A stretch of DNA of 64,000 nt from an uncultured Acidobacteriota bacterium (GCA_963720545.1 OY970399.1:1856001-1920000), one strand, 5' to 3'; shown: positions 57,741-64,000, counted from the first letter of the stretch. A program made the numbers and translations. The notes: generated by a model from the letters alone, not told the origin.

Positions 57741-57782
57741 AATCGACGGATTGGACGGGGACAGCCAGCCAATCCGTCGATT
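57741..57782. terminator. 14-bp inverted repeat between convergent genes
   Basis: AATCGACGGATTGG ... CCAATCCGTCGATT. Confidence 0.55.
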
Positions 57783-59130
57783 ACTTCTTAGCAGCCTTCT
57801 TTGGCAATGGGTTGAGCATGTAGTCGACGGTGAGGTTGGACAGCAGGCGGACGCCTACTGGCAACGCTTTTTCGTCGGCGTAGAAGAGCGGCGAGTGGTT
57901 GGAGGCGGCCTTGTCCGGGTCGCCCGGCGGGGCGACGCCGAGGGCCACGAACAGGCCCGGCACCTTTTCGGCGAAGTACGAGAAGTCTTCGGCTCCGGTG
58001 ATGGCCTGGCCCACGGCGCTGTGGTCGGGGCCGGTGACGCGGGCGATGGTGGGAACCATCTTCTCGGTGAGGGCCGGGTCGTTGACGGTGACGGGATAGC
58101 CGAGCGTCACGGTGACGTCGGCGGTGGCGCCGGCGCTTTCGGCGATCGACTTCGCGGTGCGCTTCAGCCGCTCGTGGATGTCGGTGCGGACCGCGGCGTC
58201 GAAGGTGCGGAGGGTACCTTCGAGGTAGACGTCGTCCGGGATGATGTTGTTGCGCACGCCGCCCTTGATGATGCCGACCGTCACGATCGAAGGCGTCAAG
58301 GTCACGTCGAGCTGGCGGCTCGCGATCGTCTGCAGGCCCAGCACTATCTGTGAAGCGACCACGATCGGGTCGACGCCCTTCCATGGGGCGGCGCCGTGGG
58401 TCTGGCGGCCCTTCACCAGGATCTTGAAGCTGTCGGCGCTCGCCAGGAAGCCGTTCGGCCGGTAGCGCACTTCGCCCACCGGCAGCGGGAACACGTGCAG
58501 GCCGAAGATCGCATCGGGCACCGGGTTCTCGAGGACGCCCTCCTTGATCATGAGCGCAGCACCGCCTTCCTCGCCATCCGGCGGGCCCTCTTCCGCGGGC
58601 TGGAAGATGAACTTCACGGTGCCGGGCAGCGTCGCCTTCATGCCGGCGAGCACCTCGGCGGTGCCCATCAGGATCGCCACGTGGTTGTCGTGGCCGCAGG
58701 CGTGCATCACGCCCACTTCGGCGCCGTTGTACGTCGTCTTCACCTTCGACGCGAACGGCACGTCCACACGCTCGGTCACCGGCAGCGCATCCATGTCGGC
58801 GCGCAGCGCCACCACGGGGCCTGGCTTGCCGCCCTTGAGCACGCCGACGACGCCGGTCACGCCGACGCCCGTCTTCACTTCGAGCCCCAGTTTCGTCAAG
58901 TGATCGGCCACCAGCTTGGCGGTGCGCGTCTCGCGGTTGCCGAGCTCGGGATGCTCGTGGATGTCGCGGCGCCACGCGACCACCTGCGGTTCGACCGCGG
59001 CGGTGCGCTTGTCGATGTCGGCGTGCATCGCAGCGCCCGCGTCGGGCTTCGCCGCGGCAGCGCCCGCCTGAGTTCCGAACGCTGCGAAGAGCATGAAGAT
59101 GCCGGCGGCCGCGGCCATGTGGATTTTCAT
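57781..59130 (-). CDS. Secreted M20D amidohydrolase / carboxypeptidase
   Basis: HEHPELG, LRADMDALP, MHACGHD, FQPAEEG, AEDFS, NHSP; signal peptide. Confidence 0.92.
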   Translation of the reverse strand: MKIHMAAAAGIFMLFAAFGTQAGAAAAKPDAGAAMHADIDKRTAAVEPQVVAWRRDIHEHPELGNRETRTAKLVADHLTKLGLEVKTGVGVTGVVGVLKGGKPGPVVALRADMDALPVTERVDVPFASKVKTTYNGAEVGVMHACGHDNHVAILMGTAEVLAGMKATLPGTVKFIFQPAEEGPPDGEEGGAALMIKEGVLENPVPDAIFGLHVFPLPVGEVRYRPNGFLASADSFKILVKGRQTHGAAPWKGVDPIVVASQIVLGLQTIASRQLDVTLTPSIVTVGIIKGGVRNNIIPDDVYLEGTLRTFDAAVRTDIHERLKRTAKSIAESAGATADVTVTLGYPVTVNDPALTEKMVPTIARVTGPDHSAVGQAITGAEDFSYFAEKVPGLFVALGVAPPGDPDKAASNHSPLFYADEKALPVGVRLLSNLTVDYMLNPLPKKAAKK

Positions 59131-59160: not shown

Positions 59161-61332
59161 CTAGAAGCGCACGCCGTAAACGACGCGGAACGACCGGCCC
59201 ATCTCCGGCGCCAGCTCCTTCAGGTATGAAAGATGGTTCCGATAGAGCTCGTCGCCCGCGTTGTCGAGCCGCACGGTGAGGGTATGGGCGGTCGTGCCGC
59301 TGGTGAGCGTGTAGGAGCCGTGGAAGTTCACGACCGTGTAGCCGGCGGTCGGCAGCTCTTCCCCGTAGACGCGGTCCTGGCGTGCGGCGGCGCGGACCTC
59401 GCCCTCGAGGTGCAGCCCCTTCCTTTCGTAGCGCAAGCCGGCCCAGCCGCGGTACGGCGGGATGCGCGGCAGCGCGTCGTCCGTGCTGCGCAACTCGCCG
59501 TGCACGCCGTCGCCGCCAAGTTCCAGCCACAGAGAACCGGTCACAGCCGCGTCCACGTGGGCTTCGAACCCTTGCAGCCGGGCATCGGCCGCGGTGAAGC
59601 GAATCACCGGCAGCTCGTCCTCGATTTCACCGGACTGCAACGGGAAGATGTAGTCGTCGATGTCGTTGCGAAACACCGTGAGTTCGCCGCTGAAACGCGC
59701 TCGGCGCCAGCGCAGGGACAGGTCCGCGCCTCGGCCCACTTCGGTGCCGAGACCGGGATCGCCGATTTCGAACGCGTTGTTGCCCGGGTGCGCACCGACG
59801 TTGTAGAGCTCCTCGAGGCTCGGGTTGCGGGCCGCGCGCGCCAGGCTGAGCGCCAGGGTGACGTCCTCGCGCAGGTACGCAAGGGCCCCGAACGAGCCCG
59901 ATGCGTTGGTGAAGCGCCGCGCCACCACGTTGTCGCGGTCCGGCACGAACGAGGCATCGGGATCGAAGCTGGTGTGGTCGAGGCGCGCGCCGAGCTGCAG
60001 CGTCACATGGCCGAACGGGCGTTCCTCGTAGAAGTACGCAGCTGCCGAGTGCTGCGTCGTCGGCGGCGCCAGCGCCTCCTCCCCGATCGACTCATAGTCG
60101 CGCGTCGCTCCCTGGAAGCCGATCGTGCCCTTGATGCCGGTCGAGCCGAGCGGCGCGTGGTTGAGCGCCACGTTGCCCTCCCAATACTTGTTGAAGAACT
60201 GCGTGCCAACGTCCTCGCCTTCGAACTCGGTGTGCGAGTAGTTGCGGTAGCCCAGCTCCACCTTCACGCCCTCGATGAAAGAGCCGTCGAAGCGGCGCTC
60301 GCCGCGCAGGTCGGCGCGATGGCGACGCGGGTTGAGAGTGATGTTGCCCGACTCGACGTACGGGATGCCGTAGGTGGTGCGGTTGAAGTTGTACGCGGCG
60401 CCGACGAAGCCCTTGTCGTCGGCATAGCCCACCGAGCTGCCGAGCGACACCATGTCGCTCTGGCTGTTGGGCACCTGGCCGATCGGCGTGTCGTAGTCAC
60501 GGGTGCGCCGCGCGCTGCCGCCGCCGCGCAGCGACCAGCCGTTGCGGCCAAATACGGCCGTGCCGCTGCCGCCGGCTTCGCCGTTGCTGCTGCCACCGTC
60601 GAGGTTCAGGTAGCCGTGGGTGCCAGAAATCGGCGCGCGCGGGATCTCGTCGGAGATGACGTTGATGACGCCGCCGATGGCGCTGGCGCCATAGAGCAGC
60701 GTCGCCGGGCCGCGCACCACTTCGATGCGGTTGGCGGCGGCAGGATCGAGGGTGACGCCGTGATCGCCGGACTGGAACGAGAGGTCGCCGGTGCGCACGC
60801 CGTTCTCCAGGATCAACACCCGGTCGCCGTCGAGGCCACGGATCACCGGGCGGGCATTGCCCGCGCCGAAGGAGCGCACGTTGACGCCCGGTTCGGAACC
60901 GAGCGTCGCGCCCAGGGTGGCGCCGAGGCGCTGCTGCAGCTCTTCGCCGCCGAGCACGGCCGCGGGCTGGAAGCTCTCGAAGGTGTCGCGGGCGGTCGGG
61001 CTGACGGTGATCGATTCGGTGACGTGCACCGCCTGCGCCAGCGTGAAGTCGAAGGACGCCGCGAGGTCGGTGCCGACGACGGCCTCGCGCCGCACGGTGG
61101 CGAAGCCGCTGAGCGCCGCGACCAGGTGGTAGCGGCCCGGCGCAATGCCGGCGATGCGGCAGGTGCCGCTGGAGTCGGTGACGCACTCCTTCTTGAGGGC
61201 GGGATCGTCACCGAGGGTGACGGTGGCACCGGCGAGCGGCAGGTCGTCGGCGTCGCGGACCGAGAACGAGGCGTCCGCGGCGGGCAGGAGCGATGCGGCG
61301 AGAAGCAACGACTGGATGGACGAATACAGCAT
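59161..61332 (-). CDS. TonB-dependent receptor, ZnuD-like metal receptor
   Basis: RPVIRGLDGDRV, SGDHGV, IEVVRGPATLLYG..AIGGVINV, YSHTE, ELY..GAH, YRNHLS, C-terminal F. Confidence 0.85.
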   Translation of the reverse strand: MLYSSIQSLLLAASLLPAADASFSVRDADDLPLAGATVTLGDDPALKKECVTDSSGTCRIAGIAPGRYHLVAALSGFATVRREAVVGTDLAASFDFTLAQAVHVTESITVSPTARDTFESFQPAAVLGGEELQQRLGATLGATLGSEPGVNVRSFGAGNARPVIRGLDGDRVLILENGVRTGDLSFQSGDHGVTLDPAAANRIEVVRGPATLLYGASAIGGVINVISDEIPRAPISGTHGYLNLDGGSSNGEAGGSGTAVFGRNGWSLRGGGSARRTRDYDTPIGQVPNSQSDMVSLGSSVGYADDKGFVGAAYNFNRTTYGIPYVESGNITLNPRRHRADLRGERRFDGSFIEGVKVELGYRNYSHTEFEGEDVGTQFFNKYWEGNVALNHAPLGSTGIKGTIGFQGATRDYESIGEEALAPPTTQHSAAAYFYEERPFGHVTLQLGARLDHTSFDPDASFVPDRDNVVARRFTNASGSFGALAYLREDVTLALSLARAARNPSLEELYNVGAHPGNNAFEIGDPGLGTEVGRGADLSLRWRRARFSGELTVFRNDIDDYIFPLQSGEIEDELPVIRFTAADARLQGFEAHVDAAVTGSLWLELGGDGVHGELRSTDDALPRIPPYRGWAGLRYERKGLHLEGEVRAAARQDRVYGEELPTAGYTVVNFHGSYTLTSGTTAHTLTVRLDNAGDELYRNHLSYLKELAPEMGRSFRVVYGVRF

Positions 61333-61337
61333 GGCAA

Positions 61338-61408
61338 CGGACCTCCGGAAAAAAGCCAGAAACGATGAAACGGCGGGACGGGTGGCGTTTCAGGCTGCGG
61401 GAGGTCCG
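61338..61408 (-). promoter_or_regulatory. Predicted anti-SD/SD pairing that sequesters the receptor ribosome-binding site
   Basis: On the minus strand CGGACCTCC (61400-61408, within the R-G-P-P codons) is the exact reverse complement of GGAGGTCCG (61338-61346, SD 9 nt before ATG 61332). Confidence 0.65.
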
Positions 61409-61677
61409 CGGTTCGGCACGGCGGCGCGCGCCGGCGTGCGGGGCGCCGCGGGTTGCGCAAAGGTGACGGCTTCAAATGTGGCTGGTGCGACGACCGCGGG
61501 TGCGGCTGCGACCACGGGTCCGGCGACTACCGACGCCGAGCGGCACGCGAGGCAATGCAGCTCGACGACGCAGCCGTCGTCGGTATGGAAGAAGGACTGG
61601 TCGGCAAGGTTCGTCGCGAAGCCCAGGAGCGCCAGCAGGGCGACGGCGGCGAAACGAACCTTGCGCGACCGCGGCAT
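61390..61677 (-). CDS. Putative metal-sensing leader/arrest peptide (DUF2946/CruR-like architecture)
   Basis: 95 aa: signal/TM N-terminus, H31-x4-C36-x4-H41-C42-x2-C45, Ala/Pro/Val linker, RGPP at residues 90-93; directly upstream of a TonB-dependent receptor. Confidence 0.75.
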   Translation of the reverse strand: MPRSRKVRFAAVALLALLGFATNLADQSFFHTDDGCVVELHCLACRSASVVAGPVVAAAPAVVAPATFEAVTFAQPAAPRTPARAAVPNRGPPAA

Positions 61678-61681
61678 CTGC

Positions 61682-62530
61682 CTAGGCCGTCGTGCCGCGC
61701 CGGATGAGCGGACGGACGAGCGCCATGAGGATGAGGATGAGGCCGAAGGTGCAGACCATGGTGGCGCCGGTCGGCAGATCGAGCTGCACCGACAGGTACA
61801 TGCCGAGCGCCGAGACCACGAAGCCCATGGTCCAGCCGATGGCTAGGCGCTTGCCGATGCCGTCGGCGTACAGCATGGCTGCGACCGACGGCACGATGAG
61901 GTAGCAGAACACCAGCAACACGCCGGCGATCGAGACCGAAGACGTCACGACGAAGCCGAAGGACGCGTAGAACAGGAAATCCCAGAAGCGCACCGACCGC
62001 CCGTTGACCTCGTTCGTGTCGCGCCCGTGGTTCATCGAGATGGCGAGGAACTGGCGGCGGAAGATGTAGTGGAAGAGTCCCACGGCGCCGTAGAGGATGG
62101 CGGTCTTTTCCACCTCCGGCCACGAGACCGCGAGGATGTTGCCCACCAGCATGTCCTTCAGGTGCTCGGCTTCGGACGTGGCGTGGCTCATGGCGAGGAT
62201 CGACGCCGCCGAAGCGACCGCGTACGAGATGCCGATGATCGCCTCCTGCGGGATGCGCGCGCGCGTGGCGCGGATGGTCGAGAAGATGGCGGCGCCGATG
62301 AAGGTGAACGCGAGGCTCACCCAGTAGACCTTCGGGCCATGGGGATCGCCGCCCGAGAACGGCATCAGGATGGCGACCGAGGCGCCGAGCGCGGCGATCT
62401 GCGCCAGCGACAGGTCGACGAAGATGACGCCGCGCTCCACCACGTGCACGCCGAGGTACGCGTGGATGCCGGTGAGGATGAGGCTCGCCGCGAACGGCGC
62501 CGCCAGGAACGACAGGATGGTCATGTCCAA
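61682..62530 (-). CDS. Metal ABC transporter permease (ZnuB/MntB family)
   Basis: GVHVVERGVIFVDLSLAQ, EAIIGI, GNIL, GVLLVFCYLIVP, DLPTGA. Confidence 0.88.
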   Translation of the reverse strand: MDMTILSFLAAPFAASLILTGIHAYLGVHVVERGVIFVDLSLAQIAALGASVAILMPFSGGDPHGPKVYWVSLAFTFIGAAIFSTIRATRARIPQEAIIGISYAVASAASILAMSHATSEAEHLKDMLVGNILAVSWPEVEKTAILYGAVGLFHYIFRRQFLAISMNHGRDTNEVNGRSVRFWDFLFYASFGFVVTSSVSIAGVLLVFCYLIVPSVAAMLYADGIGKRLAIGWTMGFVVSALGMYLSVQLDLPTGATMVCTFGLILILMALVRPLIRRGTTA

Positions 62531-62534
62531 GGGG

Positions 62535-63443
62535 TTACTTAGCTCCCGCGAAGGCGGCCACGAGCTTGGCCGTGATGGCGTCGAACAGCTTGATGTAGTC
62601 GGTGATCTCCTTCTCGGCGCCGACCGACGGCGGCAGCACCACCACGGCCGCGCCGGTCTCGCGCGCCACCGAGTTCGGTGTCTTGAGGTCGAAGTACGGC
62701 TCCACCACCAGCACCTTGACGTTGTCGCGCTTCATCTGCGCGATCAGGTCGATCGTGTGGCTGGGAGAGGGCGGGATGCCGGGCCGCGGCTCGACGTAGC
62801 CGACCACGTTCAGGCCGAAACGGTCGCAGAGGTTCGGCCACGAGCGGTGATACGTGACGATCTTCGCGCCCTTGAGCGGCGCCATCACGGTGTTCCAGCG
62901 CGTCTCGGCGGCCGCCAGCCGCTTGTCGAAGTCGGCGTAGCGGGCGGCGAAGTAGCCGCTGTCGGCGGGGCTGATCGCCGCGAGCTTCGCCTGGATCGCC
63001 TGCGCCATGTGGCGACCGTTGCCCGGGTCGAGCCAGTAGTGCGGGTTGCCGGCAGGATGCACGTCGCCCATGGCGCGGGTCAGCTGTCCTGTGGGAATCT
63101 CGAGGATGCGCACGTTCAGCGAAGCGTCCAGGTAACCGTTGGCTCCCGGCTGCACCTTGGCATTGCGGCTCTGGTTGATGAGCGGCGGCAGCCAGCCGAT
63201 CTCCATCTCGCGGCCCACCGCCACCAGCAGGTCGGCGGCGTGCAGCTTGAGGATGAAGCTCGGCTTGGCTTCGACGAAATGCGGATCCTGGTAGCCGCGG
63301 GCGAGCGCATCGACTTCCACCTTGTCGCCGCCCACCTCGCGGGTGAGCGCCGCGAGATCTTCGGTGGTGGCGACGACCTTGATCGCTGCCTGGGCGGGAA
63401 GCGCCCCGAGCAACGTTGCGAGTAAAGCTGCGGCGAATCGCAT
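62535..63443 (-). CDS. Metal ABC transporter substrate-binding protein (ZnuA/TroA family)
   Basis: Signal peptide, VVATT, QDPHF, GDVHPAGNPHYWLDP, YH, EPRPGIPPS. Confidence 0.9.
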   Translation of the reverse strand: MRFAAALLATLLGALPAQAAIKVVATTEDLAALTREVGGDKVEVDALARGYQDPHFVEAKPSFILKLHAADLLVAVGREMEIGWLPPLINQSRNAKVQPGANGYLDASLNVRILEIPTGQLTRAMGDVHPAGNPHYWLDPGNGRHMAQAIQAKLAAISPADSGYFAARYADFDKRLAAAETRWNTVMAPLKGAKIVTYHRSWPNLCDRFGLNVVGYVEPRPGIPPSPSHTIDLIAQMKRDNVKVLVVEPYFDLKTPNSVARETGAAVVVLPPSVGAEKEITDYIKLFDAITAKLVAAFAGAK

Positions 63444-63452
63444 TGCGTCTCC

Positions 63453-64000
63453 TTAGAAAGGATGAGCGCCGTGGGCGCCGATCGAAAAGAGGAACTGGAA
63501 GAGGAACTCGTTGGCCGTGTTGCCTTCGGCGTAATTGGTGCGGCGCAGCTGGCCGCGGACCTGGCTGAATTCGCTCGGCCAGTAGGTGAGCAGCAGCGAG
63601 CCGCCCTTGTCCTTGAGGTCGCCGTTGCCCGCGCGGCCGGAATAGTCCCAGCGCGCACCGGCGAACCAGCGGCGAGCGAACTGGTACTCGCCGTAGACGT
63701 AGGTGCCGAAGGCGCGCTCGGTGGAGAGCGGATCGCGCAGGCGGCTCCACACCAGCTCGCTGCGGCCGATGACGCGCTTGTAGATCGCGCGCCGCAGCGG
63801 TCGGTAGCGAAGGGTGACGTCGGCGCCGAACAGTCGCGTGGTGCTGTCGGCGCCGCCCTGGTTGTGGCCGTAGGCGAACGAGCCGCCGAGGTCGAGATTC
63901 GTCGATTCGCTGAGGTCGCGGTAGGCGCGCAGCTTGCCGACATAGGTGAGGTCGCCGCGCGTTGGCGCCGCGAAAACCTCGGAGTTGCCGGAGTAGACCT
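63453..64000 (-). CDS. Outer-membrane porin-like protein (C-terminal part only)
   Basis: Frame open to the window edge; amphipathic beta strands; ends FQFLFSIGAHGAHPF. Confidence 0.7.
   Translation of the reverse strand, partial: VYSGNSEVFAAPTRGDLTYVGKLRAYRDLSESTNLDLGGSFAYGHNQGGADSTTRLFGADVTLRYRPLRRAIYKRVIGRSELVWSRLRDPLSTERAFGTYVYGEYQFARRWFAGARWDYSGRAGNGDLKDKGGSLLLTYWPSEFSQVRGQLRRTNYAEGNTANEFLFQFLFSIGAHGAHPF

Follow-up and report, generated by a model that had tools for sequence, protein, structure and literature searches.

CruR of Bordetella pertussis and CutF of Rhodobacter capsulatus are exported leader peptides that act on metal-related genes downstream, and in the literature found, only copper-sensing leaders of this kind have been shown to work. 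This report concerns a leader open reading frame (ORF) in a 64,000-nucleotide stretch of DNA (the window) from an uncultured Acidobacteriota bacterium (GCA_963720545.1 OY970399.1:1856001-1920000). The leader lies between the genes for a metal permease and a ZnuD-like TonB-dependent receptor. Most likely it acts as a translational switch under metal control, probably a zinc version of the CruR and CutF copper sensors. The full proposal, put forward with modest confidence, is that the leader works in cis as a CruR/CutF-like arrest peptide governing receptor translation, with the stall unmasking the receptor Shine-Dalgarno (SD) sequence and zinc releasing the stall.

Known arrest leaders

CruR (Bp2923, DUF2946/PF11162) resembles the leader in its export signal, in the TonB-dependent metal importer encoded downstream, and in a CxxC motif located ~45 residues before a C-terminal RAPP-type motif, a spacing that the leader matches within one residue (PMC9426467). 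In CruR the stall is the ON state and metal presumably releases it (PMC9426467). The arrest has been mapped by toeprinting, with the Pro codons of the motif in the P and A sites (PMC12992588). CutF, like the proposed leader, is an exported nascent sensor whose stall melts a stem-loop that hides an SD sequence (PMC9973294). It has a CxxxC motif and a PPP motif, is EF-P dependent, and stalls in response to copper to allow synthesis of a detoxifying oxidase (PMC9973294; 10.1101/2025.02.05.636593). ApdA/ApdP and SecM are small exported proteins that likewise have a RAPP/RGPP core close to the C-terminus. They are export monitors encoded before sec genes (PMC12992588) and are not known to carry a conserved metal cluster at a fixed distance. 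In Caulobacter, the DUF2946-type protein CC2720 heads the zinc-related operon czrCBA-zntA, but that is an efflux operon activated by Zur at its promoter (PMC4176598), whereas the leader described here precedes uptake genes.

The leader differs from CruR in its H-x4-C-x4-HC-x2-C cluster, in its zinc-type downstream genes, and in scoring below the PF11162 cut-off. It has a 57-nt intergenic region with an anti-SD helix, in contrast to the 162 nt and Rho termination of CruR (PMC9426467), and it is internal to an operon that is headed by a second copy. It differs from CutF in that RGPP precedes an uptake gene and the anti-SD strand is formed by the arrest codons themselves. Because the leader precedes an uptake gene and CutF a detoxifying oxidase, the sign of control should be opposite to that of CutF. 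From these analogies we infer a leader with the sign of CruR and the output of CutF.

RAPP/RGPP upstream ORFs before TonB receptors have been cataloged across Gram-negative bacteria by Fujiwara et al. (PMC12992588). The source data of their Fig. 4 contain one member of the leader's family and 9 leaders before 'zinc-regulated' receptors. The word 'zinc' has 0 occurrences in the main text, and no mechanism, metal or hairpin is treated there for those ORFs (PMC12992588). The preliminary description of the window knew of no characterized case in a zinc context; no characterization was found, though members of the family do stand in this bulk list. In the open literature, no description or test of a zinc-sensing arrest leader was found, although one of the 29 clusters of PMC9973294 or the supplements of PMC12992588 may cover the motif. 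A search of the same literature found no description of a post-transcriptional zinc sensor in bacteria, and the CruR paper states that riboswitches for zinc or copper had not been described (PMC9426467). What is new here is the different ligand set, the probable zinc specificity, and the pairing of CruR sign with CutF output; the overall design is already known.

Architecture and conservation of the leader family

The leader is a 95-aa candidate metal-sensing arrest peptide with an ATG start, encoded at 61390..61677 on the minus strand, as are all window features below, and identified by ORF calling and family conservation. Residues 1-25 (61603..61677) form a basic n-region and a hydrophobic segment that would serve as a Sec signal or signal anchor. 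This export signal was judged from hydrophobicity (Kyte-Doolittle 11-mer maximum 2.64), and the 12-mer hydrophobicity is >=2.0 in 40/40 members with an identical cluster. The putative metal site H31-x4-C36-x4-H41-C42-x2-C45 (61543..61587) is followed by a spacer of 44 residues between C45 and R90 (residues 46-89; 61411..61542), of which 30 are Ala, Pro or Val. The putative RGPP arrest motif (residues 90-93; 61399..61410) is separated from the TGA stop codon by two residues. Each of these elements, from the ORF and its signal-like N-terminus to the terminal motif, agrees with the preliminary description. An AlphaFold model of the leader (pLDDT 62.7, pTM 0.28) contains a helix at residues 3-27 and is unfolded past residue 50, with low pLDDT in the spacer; it is too weak for a fold search or for metal geometry.

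Matches to CxxC-(43-45)-R[AG]PP-stop, without the other ligands, number 2 in the genome and are seen 1 time in the reversed genome, and 1, 0 and 1 times in three shuffles. Taken alone, it is within chance in this GC-rich genome. The five-ligand cluster is found 2 times, in the leader and in its paralogue, whereas each of the four controls has 0. On comparison with its relatives, the leader ORF is genuine, and it is conservation that decides this, not the rarity of the motif.

In an alignment of 13 sequences with 26-45% identity, H31, C36, H41, C42, C45, R90, P92 and P93 are invariant, and the family consensus of the cluster is HTDDGCxxExHCxxC. The alignment profile matched 340 proteins among 8000 scored candidates, one of which is named Vicinamibacteria. 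Among the best 120 of these 340 homologues, the full cluster is present in 117, and the cluster together with the terminal motif in 115 (82 RAPP, 33 RGPP). The spacer of those 115 has no conserved sequence and a nearly fixed length of 44 (63 members) or 45 residues (52 members), with the caveat that a profile search may favor similar spacer lengths. When spacers of 36-52 residues were allowed, the 88 distinct leaders from all fetched loci had 43-45 residues in 82/88. The cluster is exact in 40 of these leaders, has an x6 variant in 17, all of them before the HGAHPF protein described below, and is a looser His/Cys arrangement in 31. The conservation of the ORF, its ligands, R[AG]PP and the HCxxC-to-motif distance, which had been proposed as a check, thus holds in relatives.

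A profile search of genomes gave matches in at least 56/401 of the class and at least 6/401 of the phylum, counts that are lower bounds, since the search scored 12 candidates per genome after a first look and missed known porin-type leaders. The family is concentrated in Vicinamibacteria-related Acidobacteriota. No relative of the leader was found in viral contigs, and a PDB sequence search with the family profile returned nothing. Membership in DUF2946, which the preliminary description had suggested checking, was not borne out: the leader has no match to PF11162 (cut-off 23.7 bits) and the paralogue scores 11.9 bits. Weak matches are found in 3/13 close members (best E 0.19) and at E<=1 in 11/30 wider members, with 1/30 above the cut-off, and one Atlas cluster with 54% DUF2946 has a score of 0.94. 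On these profile scores, the family is a distant relative of DUF2946 and not a formal member.

The leader shares with CruR and CutF an export signal, a Cys/His motif, the motif spacing (45 +/- 2), and a metal gene downstream on the same strand. The first-in-operon position reported for cruR is found in the paralogue and not in the leader. A CutF-type stem-loop that hides the downstream SD sequence within reach of the stalled ribosome is present by prediction and comparison.

Associated genes and the candidate metal

The presumed controlled gene encodes a 723-aa TonB-dependent receptor (59161..61332) with Pfam plug and barrel domains. Its best match among 30 NCBIfam families is ZnuD at 255 bits, below the NF038289 cut-off of 950, and its best PDB match is ZnuD (E 8e-47), compared with E 7e-15 for OprC. 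The earlier assignment as a Zn-type receptor holds to this extent; by family scoring the receptor is ZnuD-like only and not a formal ZnuD family member. In 22 other genomes with a ZnuD-like receptor, an R[AG]PP leader stands in front of the gene in 19 (16 directly, 3 across split contigs), and 0/7 weakly related receptors have a leader in front.

Upstream of the leader are genes for an ABC-3 metal permease (61682..62530; Pfam), whose stop lies 4 nt before the leader ATG, a ZnuA-type binding protein (62535..63443; PF01297), and an outer-membrane-type protein of 445 aa that ends in HGAHPF. Only the 3' part of the last gene is in the window (63453..64000; whole gene C1:1919453-1920790), and the protein has no match in Pfam or NCBIfam. 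A paralogous RGPP leader, 38% identical, heads the operon just beyond the end of the window (C1:1920903-1921184; also L031:8904-9185). The order is therefore paralogue leader, HGAHPF protein, binding protein, permease, leader, receptor. Among 30 HGAHPF (porin-ZnuA-permease) loci, the leader is whole in 23 and cut in 2, and 2 loci are cut off earlier.

The closest structural relatives of the binding protein are ZnuA proteins, with three His ligands aligned and no Asp at the fourth position, a pattern which we take to mark a Zn-type binding protein. It is the one PF01297 gene found in the genome. Manganese specificity was rejected on this ligand pattern. Of the Zn/Mn-type operon proposed earlier, the zinc uptake context stands and manganese does not.

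The genome is 94.8% complete and in one contig. Its single Fur-family gene scores best as Fur (97 bits, Zur 53), and in 5 relatives all 10 genes of this family have Fur or PerR, and never Zur, as their top-scoring model. No Zur-type regulator was found in the genome, nor a match to NikR_C, nor one to DtxR above its cut-off. No Zur/Fur-like box, by the patterns used, occurs in 87 upstream regions. In 63/87 of these regions (a raw count) a TAnnnT hexamer lies <=25 nt from the start, which may suggest short-leader transcripts.

From this sequence context, zinc is the fairly probable main metal. Two points weigh against it. The typing of Zur uses hidden Markov model scores below cut-off and generic box patterns. 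The five ligands do not fix a metal, and among more distant leaders with this layout some stand before CobN and before receptors of the B12 or siderophore type. The same arrest-and-unmask switch could instead respond to Cu, Ni, Co or several soft metals, which we consider unlikely and yet the strongest competitor. In its favor, copper is the metal sensed by the two prototypes that have been tested, a His/Cys set does not specify one metal, CobN and B12-type receptor genes lie behind related leaders, and the receptor falls below the ZnuD cut-off. Against this, the binding protein is nearest to ZnuA structures with its three His, the receptor is much closer to ZnuD than to OprC, neither an oxidase nor a copper chaperone was recognized among the operon's products, and the search for a Zur-type regulator that could control these genes found none.

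Predicted pairing of the RGPP codons with the receptor Shine-Dalgarno sequence

The intergenic region of 57 nt (61333..61389) between the end of the leader and the receptor ATG at 61332 is predicted to close a hairpin. The RGPP codons (61400-61409) form an anti-SD strand that would pair with the receptor SD strand (61337..61346, with GGAGG at 61342-61346) in a helix of 10 bp. The minimum free energy of the hairpin is -30.4 kcal/mol (z -2.71), and 2/200 shuffles are as stable. For comparison with relatives, 19/88 leaders were dropped before the RNA tests, 3 without a downstream start and 16 with an uncertain start or a gap >145 nt, some of the 16 chosen by eye. Covariation could not be read from a MAFFT alignment of these intergenic stretches, and helices were compared by script instead.

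Pairing of the SD sequence with the predicted stall footprint (P >0.5) is found in 16/20 ZnuD-like loci and in 9/16 other loci. Across 30 receptor loci, the mean length of the SD helix is 6.07 bp with the own leader, 4.99 bp with swapped leaders, and 3.1-3.7 bp with upstream windows (permutation p <1e-4; the genomes are kin, so p-values are overstated). The SD partners follow the codons, for example GGACCTCC/GGAGGTCC for RGPP and GCTCCTC/GAGGAGC for RAPP. The codons themselves are skewed. The first Pro codon of the motif is CCT in 24/69 leaders, compared with 8% of Pro codons in the downstream genes, and the second is CCC or CCT in 58/69, compared with a background of 46%. In modeling, a stall makes the ribosome-binding site easier to open, by a mean of 3.1 kcal/mol (sham stall 0.3); at this locus the cost drops from 15.3 to 8.7 kcal/mol. 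SD unmasking is a likely output of the stall.

Alternatively, the stall could act chiefly through Rho-dependent termination, as CruR operates, with a secondary hairpin. In favor of this, C mildly exceeds G in the leader's 3' half (raw counts of 17-21 C and 8-14 G per 40 nt), and SD pairing is weak at porin-type loci. The intergenic region, however, is 57 nt and not the 162 of CruR, and the SD helix and codon bias are retained in receptor loci. Rho termination and SD unmasking could coexist; Rho as the chief route is improbable.

The proposed switch

Under the preferred reading, the ribosome would stall at RGPP with P92 and P93 in the P and A sites, as judged from the tested RAPP/RGPP peptides and CruR. 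The stalled ribosome would cover the anti-SD codons and leave the SD sequence free, so that the receptor is made, an effect expected from CutF. The receptor is an importer, and metal should therefore release the stall, as in CruR. In zinc sufficiency, zinc would bind the His2Cys3 cluster of the nascent chain near the SecY exit, and metal binding or folding would pull on the chain and release the stall. The ribosome would then terminate two codons on, the hairpin would close, and the receptor would be off. The paralogue would act likewise at the operon head, which would probably place the receptor behind two gates. A regulatory arrest function is very probable, and release of the stall by metal is only slightly less so.

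The preliminary description placed the metal motif immediately beyond the mouth of the ribosome tunnel. When P92 occupies the P site, 47-61 residues separate the ligands from the peptidyl-transferase center. A small zinc finger folds in the tunnel and pulls SecM at tethers of ~20-30 residues, and zinc-driven folding releases an arrest peptide in vitro (PMC4571824). About 50 extended residues reach the periplasmic end of SecYEG (10.1101/2021.02.06.430026). Since 47-61 residues is past the zinc-finger range and near ~50, sensing at the periplasmic exit fits at least as well as sensing at the tunnel mouth, which stays one possible geometry. CruR has the same spacing and works without its signal peptide (PMC9426467), which weighs against periplasmic sensing; on balance we lean slightly toward the periplasmic side.

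Another explanation is an export or redox monitor of the SecM/ApdP kind, with release by Sec pulling or by a CxxC disulfide instead of metal. All members have an export signal, it was as monitors of Sec that RGPP/RAPP peptides were discovered, DsbA/thioredoxin genes are also enriched behind such peptides, and disulfide-driven release has been proposed for CutF. Two invariant His residues, an odd number of Cys, and downstream genes for metal uptake, not Sec or Dsb, make this explanation improbable. The export signal, the ligands and the place within a transport operon here would also suit a small protein that binds metal, is secreted or anchored, and regulates nothing, its RGPP being incidental. 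This is very improbable, because conservation of the spacer in length only, an invariant R and PP near the stop, skewed Pro codons and anti-SD pairing are unexpected of a mature protein, and the model is unfolded past residue 50.

Several observations weigh against the proposed switch itself. Not every RAPP-like motif stalls, and the CutF motif is weak alone (PMC9973294). Among the 22 receptor genomes, 2 have no leader and 1 has a leader ending in APKNSPP, and 3/30 HGAHPF loci are without a leader. SD-footprint pairing is found in 9/33 porin-type loci. The signal from RNA folding is of moderate strength. Tested against synonymous shuffles, the duplex at this locus has p=0.07, and p<=0.05 is reached in 12/69 loci only. 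The SD sequence is 19-28% unpaired after the modeled stall, and it remains mostly paired because it re-pairs with upstream mRNA.

Operon context and variant loci

The leader's own SD sequence is almost nil, so its translation must couple to that of the permease; this coupling is probable and is assumed here, and it would place the receptor behind both leaders. The paralogue follows a TTGACA-type, sigma70-like promoter candidate with a very short 5' leader, a site read by eye where the promoter scan gave no call. Its SD pairing is weaker (P 0.56). The promoter scan gave 0 calls in the operon, terminator-like matches were at chance level with none between leader and receptor, and an Rfam search of the operon returned nothing credible. 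The mid-operon position noted earlier is real here, where the leader directly follows the permease, and is not a general trait: it occurs in 1/88 leaders, in this genome only among the loci examined. Elsewhere, leader and receptor usually form one unit with its own promoter-like site. In L142, L113 and L112, divergent leader pairs, one for the porin-ZnuA operon and one for the receptor gene, share a common short promoter region.

No ABC ATPase gene is present in the HGAHPF-ZnuA-permease operon here or in the relatives' loci viewed (L115, L120, L123, L129). An M20 peptidase gene (57781-59130) starts 30 nt behind the receptor gene and may be co-transcribed; it was not found in 18 relatives' loci and is excluded from the system.

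The closest receptor homologue (60%; L032:2636-5481) has no leader and lies behind a LytS/LytTR-type two-component pair, so its control may have been swapped. Before another close homologue (57%), an ORF with a His/Cys stretch (L034:5790-6200, minus strand) has LLAPKNSPP at its end where RxPP would be expected, and this tail may be an alternative arrest motif. L051 and L052, two genomes of one genus, have no leader; ~400 nt upstream of their HGAHPF genes they have in common a long 5' region that is conserved in part. The three leaderless porin loci have no credible Rfam match, and the L051/L052 5' region is likewise without a match.

More distant members can also be internal and serial. In L134 (leaders at ~439, 1876 and 9634) and L135, three leaders follow one another within a single gene cluster, ahead of genes for an NHL/SGL beta-propeller protein, a CobN/Mg-chelatase and a receptor of the B12/heme type. 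This may be a multi-gate variant for cobalt. The motif CxxCH, at which c-type heme is attached, replaces HCxxC in the distant leaders L041:7145-7435, L132:9318-9602, L134:439-717, L136:1610-1882 and L139:1620-1895, of which the L139 leader precedes a siderophore-type receptor.

Implications

Surprise is limited by the known design and by the members in the published bulk list. The family is compact, its natural variants number in the hundreds, its hairpin is sharply predicted, and it could serve as a zinc reporter. A zinc version would also bear on which distance the conserved spacer of 44-45 residues sets, the one to the mouth of the tunnel or the one spanning the translocon.

A broader and more tentative idea is that zinc uptake in this lineage is governed without Zur by nascent-peptide sensors, with a His2Cys3 leader on each uptake unit and a double gate here. 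In such a scheme, the leader would act as a post-transcriptional zinc sensor, reading periplasmic zinc at the SecY exit, and the signal would pass through the ribosome tunnel to the arrest-codon hairpin, and two leaders in series on one transcript would form the double gate for the receptor. If the zinc version is true, it would extend arrest sensing to a second metal and would explain the control of zinc uptake in genomes without a recognizable Zur.

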